A DNA stretch of 55,219 bases from Nocardioidaceae bacterium (GTDB lineage Bacteria; Actinomycetota; Actinomycetes; Propionibacteriales; Nocardioidaceae): NCBI GenBank assembly GCA_035477015.1, contig DATILB010000372.1, forward strand, positions 1 through 55,219. The letters run 5' to 3'. The notes under the pieces are model-generated. The model did no database searches. It had not been told where the DNA came from and saw nothing but the letters and a program-made list of their open reading frames with translations. The translations under genes were made by a program, and so were the position numbers. How positions within the stretch are numbered: the stretch's first letter is position 1; every line of letters begins with the position of its first letter. This document shows, piece after piece, positions 14,391 to 35,247 of this stretch.

Positions 14391-14405
<15 letters not shown>

Positions 14406-20515: not shown

Positions 20516-20808
20516 TCCGGCTTCTTGCCTTACCGCCTCGGCCGCCGGTCGGGCGCTGGTTGTCGTTGCCGCGGTGCACAGGACTTCGGTCCAGCCAGAG
20601 CGCTTGTTGGCTCGCTGCGCTCGCGTTGAGCGGATTCGCGTTACCCGCAACGCGCCGCTAGTATTTGCAGGTTGCCTCGGCGAGGGAGTCTCTCCTCCGT
20701 GATCGACGCGGTCGTCGCGCTTTCCGCGCGCGCGGGTTTGATGAGCCCCCTTCCGCCCTGGCCACCACAGATGTCCAGTCGCAGGAAGCAATCGAGGAGT
20801 TCGCCCGC

Positions 20809-21456
20809 ATGTCCCCCAACGAGACCAAGCTCCAGGCCGAGTCGCGCACCGAGTTCGGCAAGGGTGCCGCGCGTCGTATCCGTCGCGCCGACAAGGTTCC
20901 CGCCGTGCTGTACGGCCATGGCGCCGACCCCCTGCACATCACCCTCAACGGGCACGACACGTTGATGGCTCTCAAGCACGGCGGCGCGAACGCGCTGCTC
21001 TCGATCGAGCTCGACGGCAAGTCACAGCTGGCGCTGCCGAAGCAGGTCCAGAAGGACCCGATCAAGGGCTTCCTGGAGCACCTCGACCTGATCATCGTCA
21101 AGAAGGGCGAGAAGGTCACCGTCGACGTGGCGCTGATCGTCACCGGTGAGTCCGCTCCCGACACCCTGGTCACGGTCGAGCACAACTCCGTCTCCATCGA
21201 GGCCGAGGCCACCCACATCCCCGACTCCATCGAGGTCTCCGTCGAGGGCGCTGAGGCCGGCACCCAGATCTTCGCCAAGGACCTGATCCTTCCGGACGGC
21301 TCGATCATGCAGCTCGACGCGGACGCCCTGGTCGTCCACGTGTCCGTCGCCAAGGAGATCCAGCTCGAGGAGGAGCCCGCCGAGGGCGCAGCCGACGAGG
21401 CCGCTCCGGAGGCTGCTGCCGACGAGGCTCCGGCCGAGGCCGCCGCTGCGGAGTGA
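20809..21456 (+). CDS. rplY: 50S ribosomal protein L25 / general stress protein Ctc
   Basis: ATG 20809 follows GAGGAG. …[31 protein letters not shown]… plus an acidic Ala/Glu-rich tail. Confidence 0.9.
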
Positions 21457-21503: not shown

Positions 21504-22085
21504 GTGACCGACGACGTGTGGCTAGTCGTCGGGCTGGGCAACCCCGGCCCTTCCTATTCGGGGCACCGGCACAACGTCGGCTATCTCGTCGCCGACGAGC
21601 TGGCGACCCGACTCGACGGCACCTTCCGCACGCACAAGTCGCGGATGGCCGAGGTCGTCGAGGGACGGCTGGGCATCGGCGGGCCGCGCATCGTCCTGGC
21701 TCGGACGCGTGGCTACATGAACGAGTCCGGCGGTCCGGTGTCAGCTTTGGCGAAGTTCTACAAGGTGTCCCCCGACCGAGTCATCGCGATCCATGACGAG
21801 CTCGACATCGCTTTCGACACCCTGCGGGTGAAGCTCGGTGGCGGCGACAACGGCCACAACGGGCTGCGCTCGATCCGGGCCTCCTTGGGCTCCGGTGACT
21901 TCTACCGGGTGCGCGTGGGCATCGGCCGGCCCCCGGGTCGTCAAGACCCCGCGGACTTCGTGCTCTCGAACTACTCGGCTGCCGAGCGCAAGGTGCTGAT
22001 CTTCCAGGTCGACCGCGCCGCCGATGCCGTGGAGTCCCTGGTGACCGTGGGTCTCGAGAAGACCCAGGGCGTGTTCAACTCCTAG
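21504..22085 (+). CDS. pth: Peptidyl-tRNA hydrolase
   Basis: …[21 protein letters not shown]… GTG 21504 gives the usual short N-terminus. An alternative GTG at 21453 forms a GTGA overlap with rplY. Confidence 0.9.
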
Positions 22086-23509
22086 TAGGCGCCGCGGGCG
22101 CTGAGCACGGCGCCCAGCGTCCGGCCCAGGATCGACAGGTCGCCGGTGAGGCTCCAGTTGTCGGCGTAGTAGGTGTCGAGGGCTGAGGCTTCGGCCCACG
22201 ACAGGTCCGACCGACCGCTGACCTGCCAGAGGCCAGTGATACCCGGTTTCACGACCAGGCGGCGCAAAGTGTCGGGGTCCATGGCCTCCACCTCACTCGG
22301 CAGTGAGGGACGCGGACCGACGAGGGACATGTCGCCGCGCAGCACGTTGATCAGCTGGGGCAGCTCGTCCAGTGAGGTCTTGCGCAGCAAGGCTCCGATG
22401 CGCGTGATGCGCGGATCGGCCCTCATCTTGAACAGGATGCCGTCGTACTCGTTCTGGTCGGCCAGGTCGATCTTGACCGACTCGGCGTCCTGCACCATCG
22501 TGCGCATCTTGTAGACCTTGAAGTGCCGGCCGTAGCGACCGACCCGCGTCTGGGTGAACAGCGCCTTGCCAGGAGTGTCCAGGCGTACGGCGACGCACAT
22601 GGCCACGAGCACAGGCGTCACGATCAGCAGGAGCACCGCCGCCGCGAGGCGGTCGACTGCCGCCTTGATGACCGCCGCAGTGGGGGTGGGGCGGGGAGCG
22701 CGGACGTCGTTGACGGTCGCTCCCTCCATCAGGCCCGGTGTGATCCGGTGCGGTGCGACGGAGTCCAGGATGCCCATCACGCCGAGACCCGCGCGGGTGT
22801 CCTCCAGCCGCCAGGCGAGCCGGCGGAGGTCGATGCTGGTGACGCCAGGGGATGGTGACATCACCACAAGGTCCACGTCGAAGCTCTTGACCACGGCAGG
22901 AGCGGCGCCCAGGTCGGCGACTACCGGAAGGCCCATGATCTCTGTGGGCGCCCGATCCAGGTCGGGCTCCACGAGCAGGGCTGCCACGGGCTGCACCCGC
23001 TCGCTGCGGACCCAGCGGGCCATGGCGTGAGCGATTGCCACGCGGTCTCCCACGAGCAGGACGCGCAGGGGACTCTGCAGCCTCCAGCGCAGCGCGCGGC
23101 AGAGGAGCGAGGTGGCGGCGGCAACCAGGACGGCCGTGGAGGCGGGCACGACCGCGGCCTCGGGGATGCCGAGGAAGACGACGGTGGCGGCCAGTCCGCA
23201 CAGCGGAAGCAGGACGCTCCTGGCCACCAGACGCAGCTGGTGGTGCAGGGGCGTGGTCAGACCGGTGCTGCCGTGGAAGCTCAGCACCTCCCAGACGAGC
23301 AGCGTGCCGAGGGCGATGTGGGTGAAGGAGTCGGCGCTGAGCACAGCCACCATCCCCGCGAGGGTGGCCAGCAGGAACTCGGCCTGGGAGCCCCACCGTC
23401 GACACCAGACCCGGAACGGATGCGGCTCACTGCGTCGCTCGGGAAACCGGAGTGCATCCGGCTCCATGAACGACTTGGCGACAGTGTCGCCTACCCCACT
23501 CGAAATCAT
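22082..23509 (-). CDS. Polyprenyl-phosphate glycosyl-1-phosphate transferase (WbaP/CpsE-like bacterial sugar transferase), initiating enzyme
   Basis: N-terminal TM helices and a C-terminal domain …[28 protein letters not shown]…[19 protein letters not shown]… ATG 23509 is preceded by a G-rich RBS. Confidence 0.85.
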
Positions 23510-23676
23510 GTGGACCCCCCGGTCGATGTGGTTCCCCCCGGAACCGAGTGCCTTGCGACCACCCCGTGGCGCTCTCGGCACTAAGCAAATTCTCGCGTTG
23601 CGATCTGTTCCACGCAAGTTCAAACGCCATGAACCACCCGTTCGGACTACCTGTGAGTTCGCCCACTCACGTGCTG

Positions 23677-23702
23677 GAAACCCCTTGTTTATAAGGGGTT
23701 TC
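23677..23702. promoter_or_regulatory. Locus motif copy a: perfect 10+6+10 palindrome
   Basis: GAAACCCCTT-gtttat-AAGGGGTTTC followed by GCG. It lies between the GT2 stop (23715) and the sugar-transferase start (23509). Confidence 0.5.
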
Positions 23703-23714
23703 GCGTCCAGCCCC

Positions 23715-24629
23715 TCAAATGCCCTTGCCGTGACGGTGGAGTGTCTCCATCACGCGACCAGGTCGTACGGCGCCGACGGCGACAGCGGCTGCGAGGTACG
23801 CGCGCGGCTCCCGAGCGCTGCGACGCAAGGACTGTCGTGCCCAGCGCAGACCCTCGCGCCGGTTGCCCATCGCGGCCTGTGCGAACGCGATCTGTCCGTG
23901 CACCCGGGCCGAGCCTCGAGGTGACGACTCGAACTCGGGGTAGCGCTCCAGCAGCCACGAGAGCCCGTCTGACATGGTCTCCCACCGCCGGAAGAAGAAC
24001 GACTGCTTGCCCCACCGGATCACCGTCAATGGTTGCTGCACGTTGACGATCGGATGCACCTTCGCGGTGCGCAACAGGAACTCGTAGTCCTCACCGAAGC
24101 CACCGGGCACGTCCTCGTCGACGGGGCCGATCGCCCGGTCGAGAACGCTGCGGCGCAACAGGAAGGTCGAGGGGTGCAGCTCGGTGTGCCGGTCGCGCAG
24201 CAGGTCGTCGAAGGTCACCAGGTCCAGGTCGAGGACGCGGTCGAACTCGTCGCCGTCGTACTGGACGCGGATGCCCGTCGTGCACATGCCTGCCGCCGGA
24301 GCCGCCGCGATCGCAGCCACCTGCGCCGTGATCTTGCCGGGCAGCCAGAAGTCGTCGTCGTCGCAGAACGCGACGTACGCACCCGTTGTCGCCTCGATGC
24401 CGGAGTTGCGGCCGCCCGCCAGACCCACGCTGTGGGTGTTGCGGATGACGCGCACGCTGCGGCGGTGCGCCGTCTGCTCGAGGGTGAGGTCCGGCTCGGA
24501 CTGGTCGAAGACGACGACGACCTCGATGAAGCCGAGGTAGTCCTGCTGGAGGACGGCCGAGATCGCCTCACGGACCATCTCGGGACGATCGCGGGTCGCA
24601 ATGACGACAGAGACCAACGGGTGGCTCAC
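23715..24629 (-). CDS. Family 2 glycosyltransferase
   Basis: VSVVIATRDRPEM… and the DxD motif FCDDDDFW. GTG 24629 forms a GTGA overlap with the upstream gene. Confidence 0.85.
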   Translation of the reverse strand: MSHPLVSVVIATRDRPEMVREAISAVLQQDYLGFIEVVVVFDQSEPDLTLEQTAHRRSVRVIRNTHSVGLAGGRNSGIEATTGAYVAFCDDDDFWLPGKITAQVAAIAAAPAAGMCTTGIRVQYDGDEFDRVLDLDLVTFDDLLRDRHTELHPSTFLLRRSVLDRAIGPVDEDVPGGFGEDYEFLLRTAKVHPIVNVQQPLTVIRWGKQSFFFRRWETMSDGLSWLLERYPEFESSPRGSARVHGQIAFAQAAMGNRREGLRWARQSLRRSAREPRAYLAAAVAVGAVRPGRVMETLHRHGKGI

Positions 24630-26053
24630 GATCGACTCCCCAGGTAGCCGTGCTTGCGCAGAGTCGGCCACGACAGCGCGGTGGACACGTAGCGGTGGCG
24701 CGTCGGGAGGCCGCTGCGCCAGTCATCGGGAGCCTCGAGCTGGAGCGGACCACTGTGGAAGCGCAGGGGATACCCGGCGACGGAGTGCGCCGGCGCCAGC
24801 TTGATGCGACCGTCGTGCGTCACGCGCACCGACGGTGCCTGCGGCAGGTCGTGCTCCTGCCAGACGCGCATCAGCTCGGCCTCGGGACTATCGAGGACGT
24901 CCTCGAAGCGTGTCTTCACGACGCGGACTCCTCGGTAGGGAAGTCCCCGCATCGTGACGTGGTGGCGCACCCACTGACGGGTGACGCGACTGGCGGTGCT
25001 GGGCTGCTCCTGTTGGTCCCCCACCGCACGGGCTCGGCTGTGCAGGACCCCCCGGCTGTCGCGTACGACGTGCAGGACCCGAAGGTCGATGTGCCTGTTG
25101 TGGCTCAGCGCGACCGCGGTGGGTGCGACTCGCGAGGAGTCCACCACGATGCCGGCGCCGGTGAGCTCGGCCGCGGCGTCGTAGATGCGTCGGTAGTACT
25201 CGGAGTACTCGAAGAGCAGGCGGCGCAGCTCGCTGCGCGGAGAGCGACGCGCGGTGCGGTGCAGCATCCGCTGACGGTCGACCTCCGCCTTGAGCGTGAG
25301 CACGTGGCGGACGTCGACCTTGTCCCAGCCGCCGAAGGCGCGATCGCCGACGAGGGTCCAGAACTCGCAGTCCCGGAAGTGCTCGCCGCAACCACAGGGC
25401 TCGTTGGAGAGCAGGCCGCGCTGCCAGAGGTGGGCCACCTCGCCCAGGACGACGACGTCGTCGACGCCACCGAGGATCCGCTCGAGGACGTCCGAGCCGC
25501 TGTGCTCGTCGCAGGCCAGGTAGAGCACGGTTGTCGCTCCCTCGGCCACCGGGAGTCGCCGCCCGTCGAACCTCTCCAGGAGCTGGGTCAGTCGCGTCGC
25601 AGTGTCATCCGTGGAGTGTCCGCCGTCAGTCTCGCTTCGAGTGCTGCCGAGATCGGCTACGAGCAGGTCGATCTCGTCGACCTCGGTGACGAGCTGCACC
25701 AGGCCCTTCGCTGCGGCCCACGCTGCGAAGCGCATCTGGTGGTCGTCGACGTGCTCGTTGTGCTCCGGGTTGCGCGCCAGGGTGATGGGGCGGTGTCCCT
25801 GTTTGCGTACGTCCATGATGGTGCCGGGCCCACCATGAGTAATGACGACGTCGGACTCGGCGGCCAGCGTGCCGAGGTCGTCGGGTGAGAAGAAGGCAAC
25901 GCCTGTGGCGACTGCGGGACCGGCGGTATGGCCGTGCTGGATGACGACCGTGTCGGCCGGGTTGGCGGACTGATGAGCATCTGCCCAACGCACGAGCCGA
26001 TCGAACCGATGGTGGTCGGTGCCGACGAGGATCGTGATCCGCCGGCCGCTCAT
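24626..26053 (-). CDS. Fusion protein: Alg13-like (Glyco_tran_28_C / PssE-Cps14G-type) glycosyltransferase subunit plus a C-terminal sulfotransferase-like domain
   Basis: The N-terminal ~150 aa reads ITILVGTDHHRFDRL…VVITHGGPGTIMD…DDHQMRFA. The C-terminal ~310 aa is collinear with the stand-alone sulfotransferase at 26671..27588 (VLGEVAHLWQRG…CGCGEHFRDCEFW…VVRDSRGV…). Confidence 0.8.
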   Translation of the reverse strand: MSGRRITILVGTDHHRFDRLVRWADAHQSANPADTVVIQHGHTAGPAVATGVAFFSPDDLGTLAAESDVVITHGGPGTIMDVRKQGHRPITLARNPEHNEHVDDHQMRFAAWAAAKGLVQLVTEVDEIDLLVADLGSTRSETDGGHSTDDTATRLTQLLERFDGRRLPVAEGATTVLYLACDEHSGSDVLERILGGVDDVVVLGEVAHLWQRGLLSNEPCGCGEHFRDCEFWTLVGDRAFGGWDKVDVRHVLTLKAEVDRQRMLHRTARRSPRSELRRLLFEYSEYYRRIYDAAAELTGAGIVVDSSRVAPTAVALSHNRHIDLRVLHVVRDSRGVLHSRARAVGDQQEQPSTASRVTRQWVRHHVTMRGLPYRGVRVVKTRFEDVLDSPEAELMRVWQEHDLPQAPSVRVTHDGRIKLAPAHSVAGYPLRFHSGPLQLEAPDDWRSGLPTRHRYVSTALSWPTLRKHGYLGSRS

Positions 26054-26547
26054 AGCAGCGGCCCGACTTCAATCATGTTGTTGTACAGCGCCCTCTGCTC
26101 GGGCCACTGCGCAAGCATCAGGTCGGTGAACGGTCTGACCAGCTTGCCGGTCAGGGTCGGTGTCTCGATGCGGTCGAAGACCTCGATGTAGACGGTACGG
26201 ACACCCTGCGAGCGAGCCAGCGCGAAGTAGGGCAGGGCGACTGCAGCTCCGGTCGAGATGACGACCGTCGGCTGGAAGCGCCGCATCGTCACGCGCGCCT
26301 GGACGCTGTTGCGCATCAGGTTCCGCGCGTTGCGCGTCGTCGGGTGGTAGGCCCAGGTCACGTCCTTCTCGCCGCCGAGCAGCGCGATGGCATCGGGCGT
26401 GTCGAACGTCACCCAGGCATGCGGCTTGTCCTGCCACCACGGCCGCAGCCGCATCAGCTGGGCAAGGTGCCCCCCACTCGAGCCCACCAACAGAATCCGG
26501 TCATCAAGCTTGACCGACGCCTGAACGGACGTTGAATCCTGGCGCAT
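26050..26547 (-). CDS. Alg14-like (PssD/Cps14F-type) glycosyltransferase membrane-anchor subunit
   Basis: ILLVGSSGGHLAQLMRL…VVISTGAAVALPYF… ATGA overlap with the Alg13-like gene. Confidence 0.8.
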   Translation of the reverse strand: MRQDSTSVQASVKLDDRILLVGSSGGHLAQLMRLRPWWQDKPHAWVTFDTPDAIALLGGEKDVTWAYHPTTRNARNLMRNSVQARVTMRRFQPTVVISTGAAVALPYFALARSQGVRTVYIEVFDRIETPTLTGKLVRPFTDLMLAQWPEQRALYNNMIEVGPLL

Positions 26548-26593
26548 GACGCCCCCCGGTTTTTGAACCCCCCGACGCGGTCCCCACGATCGC

Positions 26594-26619
26594 GTCTTCC
26601 CTTATTCTAAAGGGGTTTC
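26594..26619. promoter_or_regulatory. Locus motif copy b; contains TAGAAT (-10-like) facing the Alg14-like operon
   Basis: GTCTTCCCTT-attcta-AAGGGGTTTC followed by GCG. On the minus strand it reads CGCGAAACCCCTTTAGAATAAGGGAAG, 57 nt upstream of ATG 26547. Confidence 0.5.
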
Positions 26620-26670
26620 GCGACTCTCAGAACCAATCTGGACCGGGCTGAGCGTGCGCTGAGTCGTAGT

Positions 26671-27588
26671 TCACAGGTAGCGGTAGGCCTTGAGCGCGGG
26701 GTAGCTGAGCGCGGTGACGAGGCGTCGCTGGCGCGGCTCCATCTCGTCCTTCCACGCGGTGTCGGGACGCAACGTGGTCGATCCGGTGCGGAACCGCATC
26801 GGGTTGCCGGCGACCGAGTGTGTGGTGTTCAGGACGACCGTGCGCTCGTCGACGAGCGGCAGCTCCGCCGTACCGGGGAGCTCGAGCGCGCTCCACGAGT
26901 CCCGCACCGTCCCTGCCACGTCATCGAGGAGGTCCTCATAGCGCACTCGATGGACGGGCACGCCTCGGTAGCTCAGCGCACCCATGGACAGGTTGTGGCT
27001 GAGCCACAGCTGGGTGCTCGCACGTGCCCCGAGCCGCGGCATCGCCTCCTCGCCGCCCGTCTCGGGCCGTGGCACGTGCTTGGACCAGCTGTACGCCACA
27101 CCGCGGCTGTCGCGCACGATGTGCAGGATGCGCAGGTCGATCCCCTCGTGGTGGCTGAGCGCCAACGCTGTCGGGGCGACCTTGCTGGAGTCCACTACCA
27201 CGCTTGCACCGGTGACCCTGCGTGCTGAGTCGTAGATGCGACGGAAGTAGTCGGCGTACTCGTGGCTTTGTTCCTTGATCCGACGAGACGGTCGTCGCCG
27301 TGTCGTCGCCGGCATGCGCCGCTGCCGGTCCACCGCGTCCTTCAGGGCTCGGATCCGCTCGATGTCGACCGATGCCCACCCGTTGAAGGCGTCCGTCCCG
27401 ACGGCGCTCCAGAACTCGCAGTCGTGGAAGGGCTGCCCGCAGGCGCACAGCTCGTTGAGGACGACGCCGCGCTCCCAGAGGTGGGCAACCTCGCCCAGGA
27501 CCGTGACCTGGGGCAGTTCTGCGAGGAGACACTCGAGCAGCGTCGAACCGCTGCGACCTGATCCCCCGATGTAGAGCGTCGTGTCCAC
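26671..27588 (-). CDS. PAPS-dependent sulfotransferase family protein
   Basis: 5'-PSB-like loop IGGSGRSGSTLL, 3'-PB-like IVRDSRGVAYS, and Cys motif CACGQPFHDCEFW. Confidence 0.8.
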   Translation of the reverse strand: MDTTLYIGGSGRSGSTLLECLLAELPQVTVLGEVAHLWERGVVLNELCACGQPFHDCEFWSAVGTDAFNGWASVDIERIRALKDAVDRQRRMPATTRRRPSRRIKEQSHEYADYFRRIYDSARRVTGASVVVDSSKVAPTALALSHHEGIDLRILHIVRDSRGVAYSWSKHVPRPETGGEEAMPRLGARASTQLWLSHNLSMGALSYRGVPVHRVRYEDLLDDVAGTVRDSWSALELPGTAELPLVDERTVVLNTTHSVAGNPMRFRTGSTTLRPDTAWKDEMEPRQRRLVTALSYPALKAYRYL

Positions 27589-27639
27589 CGTGCGTCCCCC
27601 TTCGGCCCCAGAGGGCCATGGTCAGTCAGGATAAGGGAC

Positions 27640-28158
27640 GTGACGATCGAGCAGCTGCGGATGATGTGCCGGCGAGACCTTGCCGCGAACAAGGGCTATC
27701 CGAAGAGCATCGTCGTGCTGCTGGCGTTCCGAGTCGCGCAGTACTTCAGGTCTCGCCGGGGGCTGGTCGGCCGAATCGTCTACGTGCCCGTCGGTACGGC
27801 GTACAAGCTCTTCTCGGAGTGGCTGCTCGGCATCGAGATCCCTGCGAGCACCGCCATCGGCCCCGGGCTGATGCTCCGCCATGGTGTCGGCATCGTCATC
27901 AACCCGGCCGTCGTGATCGGGTCCGACGTCATGATCCGGCAGAACGTCACCCTCGGGAACCGCCTCGCCGACGACGACTGCCCGGTGATCGAGGACGGCG
28001 TCGAGCTCGGTGCAGGGGCGGTGGTGATCGGACGCGTGACCGTCGGAGCCGGCGCCCGCATCGGCGCAGGCGCCGTGGTCGTCAAGGATGTGCCGCCCGG
28101 TGGGGTGGCGATCAATACCTCGACCGAGATCCGGCCAGGACAGCTGCCGCGCACATGA
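27640..28158 (+). CDS. Hexapeptide-repeat O-acetyltransferase, serine acetyltransferase (CysE/EpsH)-like
   Basis: …GIEIPASTAIGPGLMLRHGVGIVINPAVVIGSDVMIRQNVTLG… followed by LbH repeats. Confidence 0.8.
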   Translation: MTIEQLRMMCRRDLAANKGYPKSIVVLLAFRVAQYFRSRRGLVGRIVYVPVGTAYKLFSEWLLGIEIPASTAIGPGLMLRHGVGIVINPAVVIGSDVMIRQNVTLGNRLADDDCPVIEDGVELGAGAVVIGRVTVGAGARIGAGAVVVKDVPPGGVAINTSTEIRPGQLPRT

Positions 28159-29383
28159 GCACCGGCAGCCCGTAGGGCAGCAGGCCGTAGTACAGCATCT
28201 CGACCATCGCCACCACGAGCAGGCTGTTGAGGGTCAGGCCGACTGGATCGCGGCGCCTTCGCGTGCGCAAAGCCATCCACAGGAAGAACGCCATGAAGGC
28301 GAACGTCGCGATCGCGCCATGTGACACGAGCAGCATCCAGAAGTGCCCCTGGGTGCCCACTGCGGGCTCGTTCGGGATCTCCGAGGGCACCGGTACGCCG
28401 TACCCGAAGAAGGGTGACCCGGGCACGAGGTCGAGCGCCTGGCTGTAGACCGAGGCACGCGTCTCGGTGCCGTTGCCCTGGAGCCGCGTCTCGAGGCGCT
28501 CCTGAACCGGCAGCAGCATGAACGCGATCGCGGCGAAGACCGCGAGGCCACCGAGGAACGAGACGCCTTTGACATTGCGCTGCAGGATCAACCGGATGCC
28601 GATGATGACGGCTCCCAGCGTCAGACCGATGAACATGCCCCGGTTGACCGTGAGGAACGCCGGGATCGTTGAGACCGGAACAATCACCGCGAGTGCCCAC
28701 CACGCAGGGCCACGACGCTTCGCTGTGACGAGGTACGCCACCACGACCGGCAGCAGCATCGAGTACACGTTGCCCCAGTTGTTCGTGTACAGGAACGGCG
28801 CACTTGGCCTGGCCGGGACGCCGAAGTAGGAGTTCTCCGAGACCTGGGCGAAGCGTCGGATCGCCATCTGGTTGAGCAGCTCGTTGCCGAGAGCGCCGGG
28901 TGCCACGGCCGACAGCAGGTGGTAGAGCGGCGTCCGCAGTGCCCCGTCCGGTGCGAGCACGCCGAGGAAGCCGCCAGCGATCGTCGTCAGCCAGTAAGCG
29001 ATGAGGCAGCTCGGGACGAGTCGCTCGCGGAGGCTCTGTGGGCCGTTGTAGATGTAGACGAACAGCACCGTCGCGGACAGGTAGAGCGCCGCGCGGTGTG
29101 CGAAGACCACGGGCGAGCCACCCTCGCGAGGCAGCATGAGGAACGACGCAAGCATGAGCCCGAGGAAGAGGAGCCAGAGGCCGAACCCGCGAGGAACCGC
29201 GACATTTCCGCGCGAGATGAGTAGCAGGACCATCGCGATCGCGACCGGGATCCAGATCACGTCGATGAGCCCGGACAGCCACCAGAGGGGCATCAGCCAG
29301 AACAGCAGCGCCAAGGGCCAGCCCGGCAACGGCGCAGACTCGCGAGCGTCGACGAGACCGCCGTCGGGTGCGAGTTGGGTCAC
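28112..29383 (-). CDS. O-antigen polymerase/ligase (Wzy/WaaL-like) family polytopic membrane protein
   Basis: At least 10 predicted TM helices with a large loop. Context is a Wzx/Wzy locus. The 3' end overlaps the convergent acetyltransferase by 47 nt. Confidence 0.7.
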   Translation of the reverse strand: MTQLAPDGGLVDARESAPLPGWPLALLFWLMPLWWLSGLIDVIWIPVAIAMVLLLISRGNVAVPRGFGLWLLFLGLMLASFLMLPREGGSPVVFAHRAALYLSATVLFVYIYNGPQSLRERLVPSCLIAYWLTTIAGGFLGVLAPDGALRTPLYHLLSAVAPGALGNELLNQMAIRRFAQVSENSYFGVPARPSAPFLYTNNWGNVYSMLLPVVVAYLVTAKRRGPAWWALAVIVPVSTIPAFLTVNRGMFIGLTLGAVIIGIRLILQRNVKGVSFLGGLAVFAAIAFMLLPVQERLETRLQGNGTETRASVYSQALDLVPGSPFFGYGVPVPSEIPNEPAVGTQGHFWMLLVSHGAIATFAFMAFFLWMALRTRRRRDPVGLTLNSLLVVAMVEMLYYGLLPYGLPVLMCAAAVLAGSRSRY

Positions 29384-29417
29384 GTCTGCGTCCTGAGAGT
29401 GTGCGAAGCCAGTGTTG

Positions 29418-29443
29418 GCGTCCCGTTATTCTAGAGTTTCGCG
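29418..29443. promoter_or_regulatory. Locus motif copy c in the Wzy/PCP divergent gap; TAGAAT faces the Wzy-like gene
   Basis: GCGTCCCGTTATTCTAGAGTTTCGCG. On the minus strand it reads CGCGAAACTCTAGAATAACGGGAC, 45 nt upstream of ATG 29383. Confidence 0.45.
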
Positions 29444-29486
29444 CCTTTGGTGCGGATTGAGCTGTCCACGCGGCCAGGGGGTCCCA

Positions 29487-30995
29487 GTGAGCGATACCAG
29501 GACCGAGGTCCCGGCCTTGGAGCTGGGCCGCTACGTCGCCGTCGTACGTCGCAGGTGGGCCGTCGTGCTGTCGGTCGCCGGGGTACTCCTGCTGCTGTCC
29601 GTGGGATACCTGGTCGTCAAGGATCGCCAGGCGACGGCAACCGCAGTCGTGAACATCAACATCATCCGGTCGGATGCCTTCAACAACGACCGCTCGCTCT
29701 CGACGCTGGTCGACGCGCAGACCGAGCAGCAGCTGGCCCGCTCTGCAGGAGTCATGACCGGAGCGGCCGAGAAGCTGGGCAACGGGCAGACCGTGCAGCA
29801 ACTGCGTGGCCGCACCCAGGTCTCCCCGCTGCCGGCGTCGACGATCGTGCGTCTGTCCTTCACCTCGGGCAGCATCGAGCAGGCCGTTGCCGGCGCCGAT
29901 GCCGTCGCGGTGTCGTACCTCGAGTTCCGTGAGGCACAGGCCGAAGCGAAGATCACCGCGATCACCGCACGGCTCAACGAGCGCGGGGACGTGCTGCGCA
30001 AGAAGCTCATCGGCGCGAACACCACGCGCTCCAACGCCGCGCCGGGCAGCCCTGCCGCAGTCCAGGCAGCCAGCGACGTGGACCTCACGACCATCCAGCT
30101 CAACTCGCTCTCCGACCAGATCAACGCCCTCGAGAGCGTCGACACGGCCGGTGGCACGGTGACCATCTCGGCGGCAGACAGCCCCGTCACGATCAGCCCG
30201 GCGCGAGGCATGGTGCTCCTCACCGGCCTGGCCGGTGGCCTGCTCCTCGGCATCATCGCGGCCTTCGTGCTGCACGCCGTCGACCGTCGACTGTTCGACG
30301 CGGTGTCAGTGACGCGCGCCGGTGGCGGCGCGGTCCTCGGGCGGTTCCGTCAGCCCATCGAGGCACTTCCGCTGTCCGGCATCGCCGCGGACGACACGCG
30401 GGTCCTTCGCGAGCGACTGCTCGCTGCGCTCCCCAGGAACGCCGCCCTTACCGTGCTCGAGGTTCCGGGAGGCCCTGGCCTGGCAGACGTGGCGTCCGCT
30501 CTCGCATGGGCCTACGCCGTCGGCAAGAACCCGGCCCACCTCGTGCTCCCGCTGCCCGACCTCGGTCAGGTCGAAGCGCTGGTCCGTGACCTCGACCTCG
30601 TCGTGGAGCAGCAGGAGAGCCACTTCACCCGCTATTCGTCGACGACGGTCCCGAACCTCATGGTGTCCGTCGGCGAGGCCTCGTCCGGCGATCCTGCTGA
30701 CGGGTTGGTCGAAGAGCTGCTCGAGGCGGTGCCAGGGCGCATGGTGCTCGTCGCCCTCGGACCTGACGTCACCGAGTCGGCCAGGTTGTCCGTAGCCCGG
30801 GCAGCCCCAGCGACGCTGCTCGTCGTACGCCCGGGACTGACGCGTCGTACCAAGCTGGTCGACGTCGTCACTGAGCTCGAGTCGGTCGGCGGGAGCGTGG
30901 TCGGTTCGGTGCTGGTGCCGATCGACGCTGCGGGCGCGCGTCAGCTGCCGTCGGCGCTGACGTCCCGGATCCGCCGCGCCGGCACCCCGGCGTAG
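29487..30995 (+). CDS. Polysaccharide co-polymerase (Wzz/PCP-2-like) with a degenerate C-terminal BY-kinase-like domain
   Basis: TM helix, Wzz-like periplasmic/coiled-coil region, second TM helix, then a P-loop-NTPase-like domain. In that domain the Walker A position reads VPGGPGLAD (no GK[ST]) and there is no C-terminal Tyr cluster. GTG 29487 follows AGGGGG. Confidence 0.7.
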   Translation: MSDTRTEVPALELGRYVAVVRRRWAVVLSVAGVLLLLSVGYLVVKDRQATATAVVNINIIRSDAFNNDRSLSTLVDAQTEQQLARSAGVMTGAAEKLGNGQTVQQLRGRTQVSPLPASTIVRLSFTSGSIEQAVAGADAVAVSYLEFREAQAEAKITAITARLNERGDVLRKKLIGANTTRSNAAPGSPAAVQAASDVDLTTIQLNSLSDQINALESVDTAGGTVTISAADSPVTISPARGMVLLTGLAGGLLLGIIAAFVLHAVDRRLFDAVSVTRAGGGAVLGRFRQPIEALPLSGIAADDTRVLRERLLAALPRNAALTVLEVPGGPGLADVASALAWAYAVGKNPAHLVLPLPDLGQVEALVRDLDLVVEQQESHFTRYSSTTVPNLMVSVGEASSGDPADGLVEELLEAVPGRMVLVALGPDVTESARLSVARAAPATLLVVRPGLTRRTKLVDVVTELESVGGSVVGSVLVPIDAAGARQLPSALTSRIRRAGTPA

Positions 30996-31492
30996 ACCCC
31001 GCCAGGCTCGCAGCGGCCGGTGACGACCGCACCTGCCGCGATCACGCAGCCGGACTCCACGACGGCCCCTGGCAGCACGAGCGCACGGGCGCCGAGCCAG
31101 ACCTTGTCGCCGATCGTGGTCGTCGTGAAGAACGAGTCCTTCGAGGCTCCACCGCGAGTGTCTAGCTCATGTGAGGCCGTGAGGATCGTCACCTGCGGAC
31201 CGAGGTGGCAGTGCTCGCCGATGACGATGCGCCCGCCGGCTGCGTCGAGGTAGGCCTCGTGGTTGATGAACGTCCCCTTGCCGATGCTCAGGTCCGATCC
31301 GGTGATCCGTGCGCCGCTGAAAACGTTTATCGTGCGCACATCCAGGCGCGCGGCACGGTAGAGCAGCCAGCGCAGCGGCCGGGGGACCAGGGCCGACCCG
31401 GCCAGCGCGTTGAGGAACAGGTGCCTCACGGCGATGGTCAGATCGAGACGCAGAGCCCGCGCGATACGTGACCGATTCGACACGTCGTTCAT
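30941..31492 (-). CDS. Hexapeptide-repeat (LbH) acyl/acetyltransferase, maltose/galactoside O-acetyltransferase-like
   Basis: …IGKGTFINHEAYLDAAGGRIVIGEHCHLGPQVTILTASH…IGDKVWLGARALVLPGAVVESGCVIAAGAVV… ATG 31492 follows GGAGGT. Confidence 0.8.
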   Translation of the reverse strand: MNDVSNRSRIARALRLDLTIAVRHLFLNALAGSALVPRPLRWLLYRAARLDVRTINVFSGARITGSDLSIGKGTFINHEAYLDAAGGRIVIGEHCHLGPQVTILTASHELDTRGGASKDSFFTTTTIGDKVWLGARALVLPGAVVESGCVIAAGAVVTGRCEPGGVYAGVPARRIRDVSADGS

Positions 31493-31548
31493 GGTCTGGT
31501 GACCTCCGGTCCCGGTGTACGGCGCTTCTCGGGTCGGCCGAGGGTCGC

Positions 31549-31574
31549 GTTTCGCCTTAGAATAAAGGGAATTC
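31549..31574. promoter_or_regulatory. Locus motif copy d in the acetyltransferase/flippase divergent gap; TAGAAT faces the flippase
   Basis: GTTTCGCCTT-agaata-AAGGGAATTC. TAGAAT at 31558-31563 is 28 nt upstream of ATG 31591. Confidence 0.5.
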
Positions 31575-31590
31575 ATGAGTTAGTGACCTC

Positions 31591-33159
31591 ATGTTAGAGC
31601 CTGGCGCCCACGGGGGGCCCTGGACCAGGAGCGACAGGATTTCTGACGACCGAGCGACCCTGAACCGTCCGAGCGCAGAGCTCGGACGGGCTGCTCGTGG
31701 TGGTGCAGTGACGTTCGTCGGCGCCGCGATGAGCGCCGGGCTCGGGTTCCTGTTCAGCGTCCTGGTCGCTCGAGCGCTCGGCACTGCGGGTGCGGGTGTC
31801 GTCCTGCAGACCATGGCTGTCTTCACGATGACGCTCAGCTTCGCCAAGCTCGGCCTCGACACCACCGCTGTCTGGCTGCTTCCGCGTCTCGTCGGTGAGG
31901 ACCGGGCTTCGGTGCGCCCAGCCGTCCTCGTCATGCTGGCCGGCGCACTCGCCGGCGGGGTGCTGGCGCTGTGCATCTGGCAGGTCGTCGCTGCGACTGC
32001 TCTCGCGGACGCCACCGAGGTCGTCGAAGCCCTCGACGTCGCGATGTGGCTTCTGCCGGCGGCGAGCGTCATGACCGTGGCCTTGGCCGCCACCCGTGCG
32101 TTCGGCGGTGTCCTGCCCTACAACCTGATCGGCAACATCACTGTCCCCGCACTGCGCCCCTTGGGCCTCGCCCTTGTGGTCGCGCTCTCGGGTGGCGCAG
32201 TCGGCGTTGCGCTCTCGTGGTCCTTGTCGTGGCTTATCGGTGCGGTGGCCGCGCTCTTCGTCCTCGCGCGCCAGCTCGGTCGTCACACGGAGCGGTCCGG
32301 GTGGCGACCCCGCCAGGGGAAGGTGCGCCAGATCTCGTCGTACGCCGTGCCGCGCACCTTCGCCGCGGGTCTCGAGCAGGCGATGGTGTGGCTCGACGTG
32401 GTGCTTGTCGGTGTGCTCCTTGGCGCCGCGGAGGCTGGGGTGTACGGCTCGGCTGCGAGGTTCGTCAGCGCCGGCGTCATCGTCGCCACGGCCCTGCGCA
32501 TCGTCGTCGCACCGCGGTTCAGTGCGCTCCTCGCGAAGAAGCGCATCGATGCCGTCGACGAGCTCTACTCCGTGACCGCGCAGTGGATCCTGCTCTTCGG
32601 TGCTCCGATCTACGTGCTCCTGGCGTTCTACGCACCCACGGTGCTGGGTTGGCTCGGACCTGGCTTCGACGACGGTGCTGCCGCGATGGCGGTCCTGTGT
32701 GTCGGGTCGATCGTCGTGCTGGCGGCCGGCAATGTGCAGGCACTGTTGCTGATGAGCGGACGTAGCTCCTGGGGGGCGTTCAACAAGCTGGTCGTCGTCG
32801 TGGTGAACGTCGTCGGCAACCTGATCCTGCTGCCGCGGGTCGGCATCATCGGCGCTGCGGCCATGTGGGCGGCGTGCATGGCCTTGGACACGGCGCTGGC
32901 CGCCTACCAGGTCCGTCGCACCGTCGGCATCGCCGTCTTCGGGCCGACCCTCCTGCGCGTCGCCGTAGCCGTCGTCGCCTGCACCGTGGTTCCTGCGGGC
33001 GTCCTGGCCTGGCTGGCGGGCCAGAATGCCGCTTCGTTCCTCACTGCTGTTCTCCTCTCGGGGCTGCTCCTCCTCGCCTACGCCCGGCACGACCGGGCCA
33101 GGCTCCACCTCGACCAGCTGTTGAAGCCGGGAAGGAACGACCATGTCGACGATGTCTGA
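31591..33159 (+). CDS. Wzx-like oligosaccharide flippase (MOP superfamily polysaccharide biosynthesis protein)
   Basis: About 14 TM helices, an N-terminus …GAAMSAGLGFLFSVLVARALGTAGAG…, and locus context. Confidence 0.8.
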   Translation: MLEPGAHGGPWTRSDRISDDRATLNRPSAELGRAARGGAVTFVGAAMSAGLGFLFSVLVARALGTAGAGVVLQTMAVFTMTLSFAKLGLDTTAVWLLPRLVGEDRASVRPAVLVMLAGALAGGVLALCIWQVVAATALADATEVVEALDVAMWLLPAASVMTVALAATRAFGGVLPYNLIGNITVPALRPLGLALVVALSGGAVGVALSWSLSWLIGAVAALFVLARQLGRHTERSGWRPRQGKVRQISSYAVPRTFAAGLEQAMVWLDVVLVGVLLGAAEAGVYGSAARFVSAGVIVATALRIVVAPRFSALLAKKRIDAVDELYSVTAQWILLFGAPIYVLLAFYAPTVLGWLGPGFDDGAAAMAVLCVGSIVVLAAGNVQALLLMSGRSSWGAFNKLVVVVVNVVGNLILLPRVGIIGAAAMWAACMALDTALAAYQVRRTVGIAVFGPTLLRVAVAVVACTVVPAGVLAWLAGQNAASFLTAVLLSGLLLLAYARHDRARLHLDQLLKPGRNDHVDDV

Positions 33160-34045
33160 CCTGAAGGAGCGCTCCCCAGACTGGGTGCGCGAGCTGGCCC
33201 GCAAGTCCACCCGCGGCTATGGCATGGCGACGGCCCGCCAGCGCGGCAAGCCTGACTACCTGATCGTCGGCGCGAAGCGTGGTGGCACGACGTCCCTGTT
33301 CAACTACCTGCGGATGCACCCCGGCGTGCTCGGAATGTTCCCGCAGCCGCGCGCCAGCAAGAGCACCGACTACTTCTTCGGCGGAGCACCCAACGGGAGC
33401 CGGTGGTACCGCTCGCACTTCCACACGAACTGGTACCTCGACAGGATCGGCAAGGACCTGGGCTACCGCCCAGTCACCGGGGAGGCGTCGCCGTACTACA
33501 TCTGGGACCCGCGTATCGCGCGACTGGCCAGGCAGGCCAACCCCGACGTCAAGGCGATCATGCTGGTGCGTGACCCGGTCGAGCGGGCGTTCTCGCACTG
33601 GCAGGAGCGCGTCCAGAACGGCGTGGAGCCGCTGACCTTCGCCGAGGCGCTAGCCGCCGAGGAGAGCCGCACCGCGGGTGAGCTTGACCGGATGGCGGCC
33701 GATCCGACGTACCACAGCGCGGCGCACGACTGGTACACCTACCGAGCCCGCGGCCTCTACCTGCCGCAGCTCCAGAACTGGCTCGAGGTCTTCCCCAAGG
33801 AGCAGCTGCTGGTGCTTCGCAGCGAGGACATGTACAGCGACGTCCAGACCATGGCGGACACCGTGTTCGAGTTCCTCGGCCTGCCGAAGTTCGAGCTGCC
33901 GACCACCAAGACCTTCAATGCCAGCAGGCGTCCGGACCTCCCTGAGGCGCCGGCCAAGGAGCTGGCGGAGTTCTACGCGCCGCACAACGCCGAGCTGGAG
34001 ACCTACCTGGGCCGCTCACTCGAGTGGACCAAGCCCTCGGCCTGA
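33143..34045 (+). CDS. Sulfotransferase (Sulfotransfer_1-like, PAPS-dependent)
   Basis: 5'-PSB PDYLIVGAKRGGTTSL and 3'-PB MLVRDPVERAFSHW. It overlaps the flippase 3' end by 17 nt. Confidence 0.85.
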   Translation: MSTMSDLKERSPDWVRELARKSTRGYGMATARQRGKPDYLIVGAKRGGTTSLFNYLRMHPGVLGMFPQPRASKSTDYFFGGAPNGSRWYRSHFHTNWYLDRIGKDLGYRPVTGEASPYYIWDPRIARLARQANPDVKAIMLVRDPVERAFSHWQERVQNGVEPLTFAEALAAEESRTAGELDRMAADPTYHSAAHDWYTYRARGLYLPQLQNWLEVFPKEQLLVLRSEDMYSDVQTMADTVFEFLGLPKFELPTTKTFNASRRPDLPEAPAKELAEFYAPHNAELETYLGRSLEWTKPSA

Positions 34046-35247
34046 CGCACCAGTGCCAGCAGGGCGTCGGTGTTGATCCACAGGTGCTCCCACGAGCCGC
34101 TGTGGACGGCGAGCGCGCAGGCGCGCTCGACGACGGTGAGGACGTAGCAGGCTGCGACCAGTCCCCAGGCACTGCGAGGGACTCCCGCGGCCGCCAGGTG
34201 TGGGCTGACCTCAGCCAGGCACGCGGCGAGGTCCACCTGTGCCAGGTCACGGTGCGCGAGGCGGTGGTTGCTGAACGTCCAGTGGAAGGGGTCGAGCCCA
34301 GCCACGACGTCTTCCTCCGCCGTTTCCCAGTCCCACACCCAGAGCGTGCCGGATCCGTCTCGTGCGGCGTTCCAGGAGCTCAGGTCGCCGTGCCAGAGCG
34401 TCGTCACAGGCAGCTCCGTGACGTCAGCACGGACCGTGTCCATGAGCCGAGCAGCGGCTCCCGCGGCAGCCTTGGTCAAGGGGAGCCGCCCGAGCTCATC
34501 GAGCCGAGCCTGCAACGCGACCAGGTGCTGGGTGCCGATGGCTGTCGACCGACGGTGCACCGGCGTCAGGGAGTAGAACTCCTTGGAGGTCGGCGGCTTC
34601 ACGTCGAGGTGCGCGCCCACGACGTCGAGCGGCAACGGCTCGGTGACCAGCGCCGGATGTCCGTAGTAGTCGAGCGTCCCGATCAGCCGTGGTGCGCGCA
34701 TCGCGCCCGAACGTCCTCCGAGCGCCGCCAGCACCTCGGTCTCCTTGGCCACGAACCCGTCAGCGATGGCGTTCCATCCGAACTTGGCGTAGCCGACCGG
34801 GGCGCCATCGTCGTCCAGTAAGGACAAGGTGGCCTTGCGGTTGGCCCCAGTGCGTACGCCGATGCTGGCGTACAGCCGAGAACGGTCCAGCTCCTCGGCG
34901 AGCAGCGCCAACGGGAGGCGCCGTGCGGCTTCTGGTCGATCCGACCGGACCTGGATGCGTGCCGTGTGCGCGCCCAAAGGTGCTCCGGCACGAGCGAGGA
35001 CCCCGCCACCGCTCCTGATCGCATTGACGTGGCGACGCCGAAGACCGCGGTAGTGCGTGGCCGCGGCGGCCTCGATGACGCTGCTTGCTCTAGGCAGCAA
35101 CAGCTGCGCACGACGCTGGTTCGGCACCAACCAGTAGCGCTCGACGTCGGACCAGCCGTCGCCCGCGGGGTCGACCGTGACGCGTAGGTCGCCGGTCGCG
35201 AACGCGGATGCCCACAGCTGCTCGGTGATGTGCTCGACAGGCAGCAT
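34003..35247 (-). CDS. APH/choline-kinase-like phosphotransferase family protein
   Basis: LWHGDLSSWNAARDG…WVWDWETAEED (HGDxxxxN and DWE motifs). ATG 35247 follows GGAGGA. The longest ORF start is 35352. Confidence 0.7.
   Translation of the reverse strand: MLPVEHITEQLWASAFATGDLRVTVDPAGDGWSDVERYWLVPNQRRAQLLLPRASSVIEAAAATHYRGLRRRHVNAIRSGGGVLARAGAPLGAHTARIQVRSDRPEAARRLPLALLAEELDRSRLYASIGVRTGANRKATLSLLDDDGAPVGYAKFGWNAIADGFVAKETEVLAALGGRSGAMRAPRLIGTLDYYGHPALVTEPLPLDVVGAHLDVKPPTSKEFYSLTPVHRRSTAIGTQHLVALQARLDELGRLPLTKAAAGAAARLMDTVRADVTELPVTTLWHGDLSSWNAARDGSGTLWVWDWETAEEDVVAGLDPFHWTFSNHRLAHRDLAQVDLAACLAEVSPHLAAAGVPRSAWGLVAACYVLTVVERACALAVHSGSWEHLWINTDALLALVRQAEGLVHSSERPR

Follow-up and report, generated by a model that had tools for sequence, protein, structure and literature searches.

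A conserved Wzx/Wzy-type gene cluster of Actinomycetota, probably for a sulfated heteropolysaccharide

Does an actinobacterium of the family Nocardioidaceae carry a pathway for a sulfated surface polysaccharide? This question is raised by a 55,219-nucleotide stretch of DNA (positions 1 to 55,219 of contig DATILB010000372.1, assembly GCA_035477015.1, from a Nocardioidaceae bacterium), referred to here as the window. A first-pass annotation of the window had described a Wzx/Wzy glycan locus at positions 22082-35247, and had predicted from it a glycan decorated with sulfate, acetyl and possibly phosphate. In the current analysis, reading frames in the window (G+C content ~68%) were picked by third-position GC, the open reading frames (ORFs) were then scanned with Pfam and NCBIfam profiles, and membrane or signal segments were judged by a simple hydropathy scan. 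Gene counts were obtained by tblastn of window proteins against 83 distinct related loci, of which 55 have full 10-kb flanks (full-flank loci). All genes listed by the first-pass annotation were found at their given positions, with the frame of one acetyltransferase corrected, and all locus genes showed strong codon-position GC bias and intact reading frames. We conclude that the region from 22.1 to 48.6 kb is probably a member of a conserved Actinomycetota cluster family that makes a short-repeat Wzx/Wzy heteropolysaccharide, most likely decorated with sulfate.

The first evidence comes from the sulfotransferases themselves. ST1 (33143-34045, plus strand) is a heparan-sulfate-type carbohydrate sulfotransferase that scored 51.8 bits against Sulfotransfer_1 (cut-off 22 bits). 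In sequence searches of the PDB, ST1 matched the bacterial sulfotransferase 3rnl (E=8e-25), the heparan sulfate enzyme 3-OST-3A (E=4e-17) and NDST (E=7e-10), and its motifs are intact (KRGGTTS in the 5'-phosphosulfate loop, GEAS, and RDPVERAFS as the 3'-phosphate motif). ST3 (26671-27588, minus strand) is a stand-alone Sulfotransfer_3-type enzyme of 305 aa that scored 40.5 bits, above the gathering score of 27 bits. It carries every motif of its family, namely the GRSGST loop, GGSGRSGSTLLE, GEVAHLW, DSSK, RDSRGVAYSWSK and GNPMRF, with RDSRGVAYS as the 3'-phosphate-binding motif, and is 64-72% identical to stand-alone copies in Nocardioides-type loci; a PDB sequence search with ST3 returned no meaningful match to a solved structure. 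Both proteins appear to be soluble, as no hydrophobic segment was detected in either by the hydropathy scan. On our reading of these motifs and scores, ST1 and ST3 would be two competent sulfotransferases. ST1 homologues were present in 48 of the 55 full-flank loci, including loci in which a further, fused sulfotransferase-like domain (described below) is degenerate. Judged by these homologues, the cluster family keeps ST1 most constantly among its sulfotransferases, and its ST3 type varies.

Sulfotransferases use 3'-phosphoadenosine-5'-phosphosulfate (PAPS) and release 3'-phosphoadenosine-5'-phosphate (PAP), and a PAP phosphatase at the locus is thus a logical companion of such enzymes. The gene at 47866-48648 (plus strand) encodes a homologue of Mycobacterium tuberculosis CysQ, a CysQ-type PAP phosphatase (Inositol_P 107.9 bits). 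The protein matched M. tuberculosis CysQ (5DJF) over its full length with E=2.4e-63 and 217.6 bits; the next PDB match was Bacteroides CysQ (3b8b) at 60.2 bits, and members of the inositol-monophosphatase family scored 43 bits or less. Among NCBIfam models, CysQ was best at 102.7 bits (below its equivalog cut-off of 228.8 bits), compared with 62.1 bits for HisN. By sequence, then, the closest characterised homologue is a PAP phosphatase and not an inositol or histidinol phosphatase. Of the 83 related loci, 20 also have a CysQ gene no more than 10 kb away (16 of the 55 with full flanks); 15 of these 20 are without pth or rplY in range, and in loci L028, L037 and L085 the CysQ gene sits between cluster genes. 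Moreover, a sulfate-activation gene is present in related loci L014, L015, L017, L036, L063, L068 and L085. Kinases for adenosine 5'-phosphosulfate (APS) scored 187-194 bits against the Pfam family APS_kinase inside L014 (Cellulomonas sp. APG4), L015, L017 and L068 (Microbacterium), and L015 holds a CysN-type GTPase gene as well; the APS-kinase probe was an E. coli CysC sequence, and its matches were then checked by Pfam. Given that a single-copy gene is expected in a random 20-kb window at ~0.4% by chance, the linkages of PAPS genes lie far above chance, with the reservation that the loci are not phylogenetically independent. In L085 (Arthrobacter sp. STN4), positions 14264-21314 contain, beside the initiating transferase gene, CysN, CysD (PAPS_reduct family), Inositol_P/CysQ, an unannotated 452-aa gene and a TauE/SafE-family membrane protein; this set may be a dedicated module for sulfate uptake and activation.

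The genes for building and exporting the polymer were examined next to the sulfotransferase genes. A tight minus-strand operon contains, in gene order, ST3, an Alg14-like gene, a gene fusing an Alg13-like domain to a sulfotransferase-like domain, a family 2 glycosyltransferase (GT2) and an initiating glycosylphosphotransferase. The operon is followed by single genes on alternating strands, encoding a left-handed β-helix acetyltransferase (LbH1, plus), Wzy (minus), a polysaccharide co-polymerase (PCP, plus), a second acetyltransferase (LbH2, minus), Wzx (plus), ST1 (plus) and a kinase-like protein (Kin, minus). The initiating polyprenyl-phosphate hexose-1-phosphate transferase (WbaP/WcaJ-like PGT; 22082-23623, minus strand) scored 323.8 bits against TIGR03025 EPS_sugtrans (cut-off 295.55 bits) and 211 bits against Bac_transf, and has several hydrophobic segments. 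PGT is 72% identical by tblastn (74.9% over the aligned region) to its counterpart in L001, the closest relative of the locus, a metagenome-assembled genome (MAG) of a soil Nocardioidaceae. The Alg14/PssD-like partner of the Alg13 domain (26050-26547, minus strand) scored 38.4 bits against Alg14 (cut-off 27 bits) and 97.8 bits against PssD (below the cut-off of 110 bits), and its gene overlaps the fusion gene by 4 bp. The fusion protein (24626-26053, minus strand) begins with an Alg13/PssE-like glycosyltransferase subunit (aa 1-140) that scored 30.2 bits against Glyco_tran_28_C (cut-off 22 bits) and 67.6 bits against PssE (below the equivalog cut-off of 120 bits). Alg14-like and Alg13-like genes standing side by side, both above their Pfam cut-offs, are a feature of the PssD/PssE type. 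GT2 (23715-24671, minus strand; Glycos_transf_2 93.3 bits) is the candidate enzyme for the third sugar, and its homologue adjoins the Alg13 fusion in 54 of the 55 full-flank loci. The Wzy-type polymerase (28112-29383, minus strand) has ~10-12 hydrophobic segments and a Wzy_C score of 32.0 bits, marginally above the cut-off of 31.7 bits. The Wzx flippase (31591-33159, plus strand), whose gene end is overlapped by the ST1 gene, has more than 12 such segments and scored 52.6 bits against Polysacc_synt (cut-off 28.2 bits). The Wzz-like PCP (29412-30995, plus strand; 73% identity in L001) scored 22.1 bits against Wzz, and its two membrane-spanning sites (hydrophobic segments at aa 42-71 and 264-291) give the topology expected for a PCP. 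The complete Wzx/Wzy set described by the first-pass annotation therefore stands for PGT, Alg14/Alg13, GT2, Wzy and Wzx, but the Wzz score of the PCP is below its threshold of 25.5 bits. Pfam and NCBIfam scans of the 55-kb window found only three sugar-adding enzymes (PGT, Alg14/Alg13 and GT2), which suggests a repeat unit of about three sugars, in keeping with the roughly trisaccharide repeat proposed earlier. The Wzz-like protein also has a C-terminal, cytoplasmic domain of ~235 aa whose sole similarity is a weak match to the tail of EpsG (a bacterial tyrosine kinase, or BY-kinase; 17.5 bits). No Walker A GK[ST] motif was found in this C-terminal domain ('VPGGPGLADVAS'), which looks like a degenerate, non-catalytic kinase-like domain.

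The first-pass annotation had counted three PAPS-type sulfotransferase domains. Two of these, ST1 and ST3, are canonical and lie above the Pfam thresholds, but the third, at aa ~173-475 of the Alg13 fusion (window 24626-25537), scored 19.9 bits against Sulfotransfer_3, below the gathering score, and has a non-canonical PAPS loop. It is a clear paralogue of ST3 (44-45% identity). In an AlphaFold model of the fusion (pLDDT 87.6), the predicted C-terminal domain matched TPST, NDST1 and M. tuberculosis Stf1 (2zq5) with probability 1.00 and also matched 3rnl, and the predicted N-terminal domain matched the nucleotide-sugar-binding C-terminal half of GT-B enzymes. If all three domains were active, as in the annotation's version, three different sulfates would be placed on each repeat, which we consider doubtful. 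Such activity would accord with the full length and modelled sulfotransferase fold of the fused domain and with the residues that it has kept, namely the 3'-phosphate-binding motif RDSRGxxxS (RDSRGVLHS), the segment HSVAG.P.RF and the invariant G204/E205; R331, D332 and S339 are invariant in our alignment A1. E205, a putative base, lies ~20 residues past the 5'-phosphosulfate-binding (PSB) loop, at a distance similar to that of the catalytic Glu in TPST2. The dN/dS of the fused domain versus L001 is 0.22, similar to that of its neighbours, and the domain is therefore maintained by purifying selection; the possibility that it is a decaying pseudogene was rejected on this ground. The PSB loop, however, reads EHSGSD instead of the GRSGST of ST3, with Arg-to-His and Thr-to-Asp changes in a loop that has the form xRSG[ST]T in 99 of 102 protein homologues and in 80 of 82 distinct locus copies. 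EHSG[ST]D was seen only in the window and its 72%-identical relatives P0001, P0002 and L001. Although His could in principle stand in for Arg as a cationic ligand, DSSK, SWSK and GNPMRF are altered as well, and no part of the operon evolves faster than the fused domain (identity to L001 is 66%, against 86% in the Alg13 part, 84% in ST3 and 91% in Alg14). Clear loss of motifs has also befallen the same domain in several other lineages. The loop change from GRSGST to EHSGSD therefore points to a domain that is probably weakened or non-catalytic, a state whose chances in the window's lineage we regard as roughly even, and three sulfates per repeat is thus not a safe reading.

Copies of the fused domain in related loci are informative about its fate. 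In Arthrobacter sp. STN4, Nocardioides caldifontis, Paenarthrobacter and several MAGs, the PSB loop is lost and the C-terminal region is truncated or unalignable (P0066, P0084, P0094, P0097, P0099, P0112 and P0116; loci L084-L086). In most of these decayed copies the 3'-phosphate-binding motif is lost too, with P0097 retaining RDVR. The ST3-type family also has an invariant CxCG-x5-C cluster (C220, C222 and C229 in alignment A1) with FW and FGGW behind it, all inside a stretch of ~45 residues that follows the GE motif. This Cys-rich segment is kept even in catalytically decayed copies of the family, and CxCG...C..FW..FGGW is retained in all decayed fused domains; the cluster might bind a metal, or it might serve in structure or docking. 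As judged from these alignments, the decay in other lineages is independent of that in the window, with ST1 still kept there, and the EHSGSD variant of the window looks like an intermediate stage of decay. The idea that a degenerate fusion is always paired with an intact stand-alone ST3 was rejected, given that L084, L085 and L086 have a degenerate fusion and ST1-type enzymes only. In P0007, P0028 and P0083 (733-818 aa), Alg13, sulfotransferase and GT2 are joined in a single polypeptide, and these predicted triple fusions support a functional coupling of the three activities. A minimal module of Alg14, Alg13::sulfotransferase and GT2 occurs in L003/L005 (uncultured Actinomycetota MAG, contig_86037, 9528-12396), with no Wzx or Wzy within 10 kb and with an ABC-2 type transporter upstream (a NodI_C-like ATPase and two ABC2_membrane genes); this module may feed an ABC-transporter-dependent pathway. 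The exact sequence of the window's fusion protein had no match on record in public assemblies, and a literature search found no bacterial-polysaccharide paper joining a sulfotransferase with Alg13 and Alg14.

The distribution of the gene set was surveyed by scanning one genome per GTDB species with the ST3 domain as query. Relatives of this domain were found in at least 389 species-representative stretches, and all 80 loci listed belong to Actinomycetota. Carriers among the listed loci include Nocardioides, Kribbella, Micromonospora, Catellatospora, Cellulomonas, Microbacterium, Leucobacter, Arthrobacter, Geodermatophilus, Acidimicrobiia and Iamia. In the full-flank loci, which are not phylogenetically independent, homologues of Wzy were present in 51 of the 55, Alg14 in 45, Alg13 in 43 and Wzx in 41; Kin was found in 27 (an underestimate at the threshold used) and pth in 18. 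The window locus itself is flanked by glmU, prs, rplY and pth (Pfam scan), and related loci often adjoin pth/rplY. From glmU through the Wzz-like gene, L001 and the window are fully syntenic, and dN/dS values of the locus genes versus this syntenic MAG are 0.09-0.25. Synteny with the 83 related loci rules out a chance assembly of domains. Gene identities, motifs, folds and the conserved linkage are what the analysis shows directly. By these homologies, the data suggest that the predicted machinery, far from being a one-strain oddity, is shared as a conserved gene set by hundreds of actinobacterial species. The first-pass annotation had called such a glycan unusual for a soil actinobacterium, which is incorrect as far as distribution goes, in view of these species counts and of the resemblance of the gene content to a published cluster, wps-1 of Actinoplanes missouriensis.

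Further decoration of the polymer may be carried out by two acetyltransferases and a kinase-like protein. The hexapeptide acetyltransferase LbH1 (WcaB/EpsC/CysE-like; 27640-28158, plus strand) scored 44.8 bits against Hexapep, and 109.7 and 100.2 bits against EPS_EpsC and WcaB (both below equivalog cut-offs); a homologue was found in 8 of the 83 related loci. An overlapping ORF from 27618, considered for the same enzyme, was rejected as a wrong frame with an Arg-rich, junk-like translation. LbH2 (Maa/WcaF-like; 30941-31576, minus strand) scored 51.6 bits against Hexapep and 67.3 bits against maltose O-acetyltransferase. None of the 83 related loci, among them L001, has a homologue of LbH2, which is window-specific. 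Kin (34003-35247, minus strand) is predicted to be a phosphotransferase of the APH/choline-kinase fold. The protein is recorded only from the window itself (P0121), and its length of 414 aa agrees with the end coordinate 35247 given by the first-pass annotation. Kin had no Pfam, NCBIfam or PDB sequence match, and a family-profile search of the PDB likewise gave no meaningful match. A model from 26 homologues (pLDDT 94.1) has a bilobal kinase fold, with best TM-scores to APH(2'')-Ia, LicA choline kinase, FN3K, capreomycin kinase (Cph), amicoumacin kinase (AmiN) and homoserine kinase II (TMt 0.5-0.57 to APH(2'')-Ia, LicA, FN3K and Cph). In the 26 homologues, K155, E169, H286-G-D288, N293 and D306 are invariant, which gives Kin the beta-3 Lys, alpha-C Glu, HGDxxxxN catalytic loop and metal-binding Asp of this kinase fold, and Kin adjoins Wzx-ST1 in the related loci mapped in detail. 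The two LbH acetyltransferases of the earlier description are therefore confirmed by their Hexapep scores, and its APH-like kinase agrees with both the predicted fold and the catalytic motifs. The hydropathy scan found no convincing membrane or signal segment in the acetyltransferases or Kin.

Given that no convincing membrane or signal segment was seen in ST1, ST3, the acetyltransferases or Kin, modification would take place in the cytoplasm, which supplies PAPS, acetyl-CoA and ATP. In the pathway that we propose, PGT would prime polyprenyl phosphate with hexose-1-phosphate on the cytoplasmic side of the membrane, the Alg14/Alg13 (PssD/PssE-type) pair would add the second sugar, and GT2 the third. 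ST1 and ST3 would then sulfate the lipid-linked cytoplasmic unit from PAPS, with the two hexapeptide enzymes acetylating it and the APH-fold kinase phosphorylating it. Through its sulfotransferase domain, the Alg13 fusion probably tethers sulfation to the glycosyltransferase complex at the membrane, and the chemistry of the probably weakened fused domain would fall to the intact ST3 encoded next to it. The unit would be flipped by Wzx and polymerised by Wzy, with chain length set by the Wzz-like protein, and the inhibitory by-product PAP would be cleared by the CysQ homologue. Outside the cell, a GH26-like enzyme and secreted proteins with PKD and propeller domains, described next, may process or bind the polymer. 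The core of the sulfate-, acetyl- and phosphate-decorated glycan predicted from the first pass is thus upheld by two sulfotransferases with intact motifs, two acetyltransferases, a kinase fold, a CysQ homologue, and APS kinase, CysN and CysD in related loci, but its three active sulfotransferases are not.

The limits of 22082-35247 that had been given to the locus are too small. The locus runs from 22.1 to ~48.6 kb, beyond position 35247, and takes in secreted PKD/propeller proteins, a GH26-like enzyme and the CysQ homologue. Directly downstream of Kin, a large secreted protein (35465-39532, plus strand) combines LamG, two PKD and propeller-like domains (PKD_4 145 bits; Laminin_G_3 86 bits) with an N-terminal hydrophobic segment; homologues 50-60% identical are found in many loci, and it is co-conserved with the cluster. 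A second large secreted PKD/DUF5122-propeller protein (39573-42794, plus strand; PKD_4 142.7 bits, DUF5122 31.8 bits) has homologues in 40 of the 83 loci, and a third secreted DUF5122-propeller protein (42928-44637, plus strand; 38 bits) has homologues within the cluster in L028 and L037. A conserved lipoprotein-like protein (LTATGC; 44624-45601, minus strand) had no family match; it was found in 6 of the 83 loci, and its homologues adjoin GH26 in L028 and L037. The secreted GH26-like glycoside hydrolase (45463-46407, minus strand) scored 19.9 bits against Glyco_hydro_26, just below the cut-off of 20.2 bits, and its homologue is present in 33 of the 55 full-flank loci. A secreted protein with a long (TP)n Pro/Thr-rich linker (46502-47713) had no family match and no homologue in the related loci. 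The corresponding ORF, 46502-47797 (431 aa; 403 from the first start codon), was rejected as a second GH26, as it showed no BLASTP similarity to its GH26-like neighbour.

The published cluster most like the window locus is wps-1 of A. missouriensis (WpsA-K, AMIS_7280-7380; PMC13390465, June 2026). It encodes GT2, the sulfotransferase WpsB, GT26 (WpsC), DUF4262, GH26 (WpsE), a methyltransferase (WpsF), Wzx, WpsH, WpsI, Wzy and Wzz (PMC13390465). WpsB is of the Gal/GlcNAc/GalNAc type with a predicted sulfotransferase domain ending at residue 304, WpsH is a heparan-sulfate-type sulfotransferase, and WpsI is protein-kinase-like (PMC13390465). Common to both clusters are Wzx/Wzy/Wzz, two sulfotransferases of different families, a kinase-like protein, GT2 and GH26. 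The end of the WpsB domain at residue 304 is close to the length of ST3 (305 aa), WpsH resembles ST1, and WpsI resembles Kin. The order Wzx-sulfotransferase-kinase-Wzy-Wzz also recurs in Micromonosporaceae loci with homologues of window genes (L082; Micromonospora, Catellatospora), and both cluster types are linked to sulfate activation. In A. missouriensis, a sulfate adenylyltransferase/APS-kinase gene adjoins wps-1 and is required for normal sporangia, as are all wps-1 genes except wpsD (PMC13390465). The phenotype of the wpsB mutant is mild and that of wpsH severe (PMC13390465), which by analogy would fit a constant ST1 and a variable ST3 type. The clusters differ in that wps-1 has GT26, a methyltransferase and DUF4262, and neither the Alg14/Alg13 pair nor an Alg13-sulfotransferase fusion is described for it, whereas the window has two acetyltransferases and CysQ, with no methyltransferase and no adjacent CysNC.

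Other known systems share parts of this organisation. The Alg14/Alg13 pair resembles PssD/PssE of Rhizobium, Cps14F/Cps14G of Streptococcus pneumoniae and eukaryotic Alg14/Alg13, split GT-B enzymes that add the second sugar to a lipid-linked intermediate. In such pairs the subunit associated with the membrane is Alg14-like, and the half that binds the nucleotide sugar is Alg13-like. Unlike PssE, the Alg13-like subunit of the window bears a C-terminal sulfotransferase-fold domain of ~300 aa, and the window pair scores below the equivalog cut-offs. M. tuberculosis CysQ supports sulfated glycolipid synthesis. The window shares with this organism a full-length CysQ homologue, and the ST3-type domain is by prediction structurally similar to Stf1; the M. 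tuberculosis acceptors, however, are glycolipids and menaquinone, and cysQ is not linked to a Wzy-type polysaccharide cluster there. We know of no Alg13-sulfotransferase fusion or kinase-like protein in the xss cluster of Synechocystis sp. PCC 6803. That cluster is likewise a Wzx/Wzy-type cluster for an extracellular polysaccharide (EPS) with genes for sulfotransferases, and its cyanobacterial product, synechan, has been chemically shown to be a sulfated extracellular polysaccharide (PMC8205485). Capsule clusters of Vibrio sp. KMM 8419 and Cobetia marina KMM 1449 also have sulfotransferase genes, and the solved polymer structures carry sulfate (PMC11641403, PMC11766843), but their hosts are Gram-negative and marine. 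A literature search on sulfated wall polymers in actinobacteria, Nocardioides among them, gave nothing specific beyond a colorimetric "sulfate content" for one Streptomyces EPS (PMC9911575).

Several points weigh against a sulfated product and have to be set beside this evidence. Neither the Pfam scans nor the APS-kinase probe found cysC, cysD or cysN in the 55-kb window. No member of the cluster family has a chemically demonstrated sulfate ester in its product, and the wps-1 authors, who propose a sulfated polysaccharide, state that experimental verification is awaited (PMC13390465). Orthology to the wps-1 genes is putative and is deduced from domain content and gene order. Curated cut-offs are missed by Wzz and GH26 (Pfam) and by PssD, PssE and CysQ (NCBIfam). 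With regard to the number of sulfates, His for Arg in the PSB loop of the fused domain may still permit catalysis, given that E205 and the 3'-phosphate-binding residues are kept. On balance, we strongly infer sulfation of the product, which is not proven.

The destination of the polymer was also considered. Gram-positive Wzy-type polymers are often attached to peptidoglycan, and the product could, by the same Wzx/Wzy chemistry, be a cell-wall-anchored anionic glycopolymer similar to teichuronic acid (a secondary wall polymer) rather than a released EPS or capsule. The housekeeping envelope neighbourhood glmU-prs-rplY-pth, with pth in range in 18 of the 55 full-flank loci, would suit such a polymer, as would conservation across the phylum, which is expected for a core envelope trait. 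No LytR-CpsA-Psr ligase was seen among the scanned window genes, however, and the A. missouriensis cluster, of the homologous type, acts on the extracellular sporangium matrix (PMC13390465), which makes wall anchoring possible but rather unlikely. It is much less probable that the sulfotransferases act on a target other than the polysaccharide, such as Tyr residues of the co-conserved secreted PKD/propeller proteins or a glycolipid, leaving the polymer unsulfated. In structure, the ST3-type domain is matched best by tyrosylprotein sulfotransferases and M. tuberculosis Stf1, and the large secreted proteins are indeed co-conserved with the cluster, but this fold is common to all sulfotransferases and says little about substrate. 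Moreover, most homologues have the ST3-type domain physically joined to a glycosyltransferase subunit, some of them to GT2 as well, and ST1 is closest to carbohydrate (heparan-sulfate) sulfotransferases and overlaps the end of wzx. Equally improbable is a locus that is cryptic or non-functional for sulfation here, with PAPS not made or the genes silent, as the missing cysC and cysDN might suggest, since the genes are intact and under the codon-position bias and constraint (dN/dS 0.09-0.25) reported above, the CysQ homologue is kept at the locus, and PAPS genes need no linkage. The sulfated Wzx/Wzy heteropolysaccharide thus remains our preferred product.

Some features of the window lie outside these questions. 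Between 27640 and 35247 the strand-alternating single genes form a layout that EPS loci do not usually show. Overlaps occur where genes converge (47 bp for LbH1/Wzy, 55 bp for PCP/LbH2 and 43 bp for ST1/Kin), and divergent gaps are very short (28 bp for Wzy/PCP and 14 bp for LbH2/Wzx); some start codons in this region may be miscalled. Upstream of the locus, genes encode a rhodanese-domain protein (2969-3394), a PMT-family protein O-mannosyltransferase (5956-7653) and an Rpf-like G5/transglycosylase protein (9463-10755). These are a typical actinobacterial envelope context, with no linkage to the cluster seen in relatives so far as examined. Directly downstream of the CysQ homologue lies a bacterial serpin gene (48656-49975; Serpin 315.8 bits), which had a counterpart in 0 of the 83 related loci.

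A broader interpretation can be offered tentatively. Under it, Actinomycetota would possess a phylum-wide pathway for a sulfated and phosphorylated, glycosaminoglycan-like surface polysaccharide, with sulfation coupled to sugar addition on the lipid-linked intermediate through the Alg13-fused sulfotransferase, with its own PAPS supply (CysC/CysDN) and PAP removal (CysQ), and with repeated emergence of a pseudo-sulfotransferase (a scaffold or PAP(S) sensor) of which the window would represent an intermediate; we think this scheme as a whole rather less probable than not. The cluster type itself was recently described in Actinoplanes and is common in Actinomycetota. New in this work are its conservation across the phylum, its linkage to genes for CysQ, CysC and CysDN, and the joining of Alg13 to a sulfotransferase domain whose catalytic motifs have been lost repeatedly, a case of an enzyme becoming a pseudoenzyme. 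Sulfated polysaccharides are abundant in animals and algae, and among bacteria proof of them is limited to cyanobacteria and a few Gram-negative species, most of them marine; in actinomycetes, the sole genetic study (2026) could only predict one. Given the repeated linkage to PAPS metabolism genes, the chemical question is directly testable in easy organisms. Cultured carriers include Nocardioides, Micromonospora, Cellulomonas, Microbacterium, Arthrobacter and Kribbella. If sulfation is confirmed, a major soil phylum would join the producers of sulfated glycans, with bearing on soil aggregation, ion binding and desiccation tolerance, and the pathway would be relevant to the microbial production of heparin-like materials.

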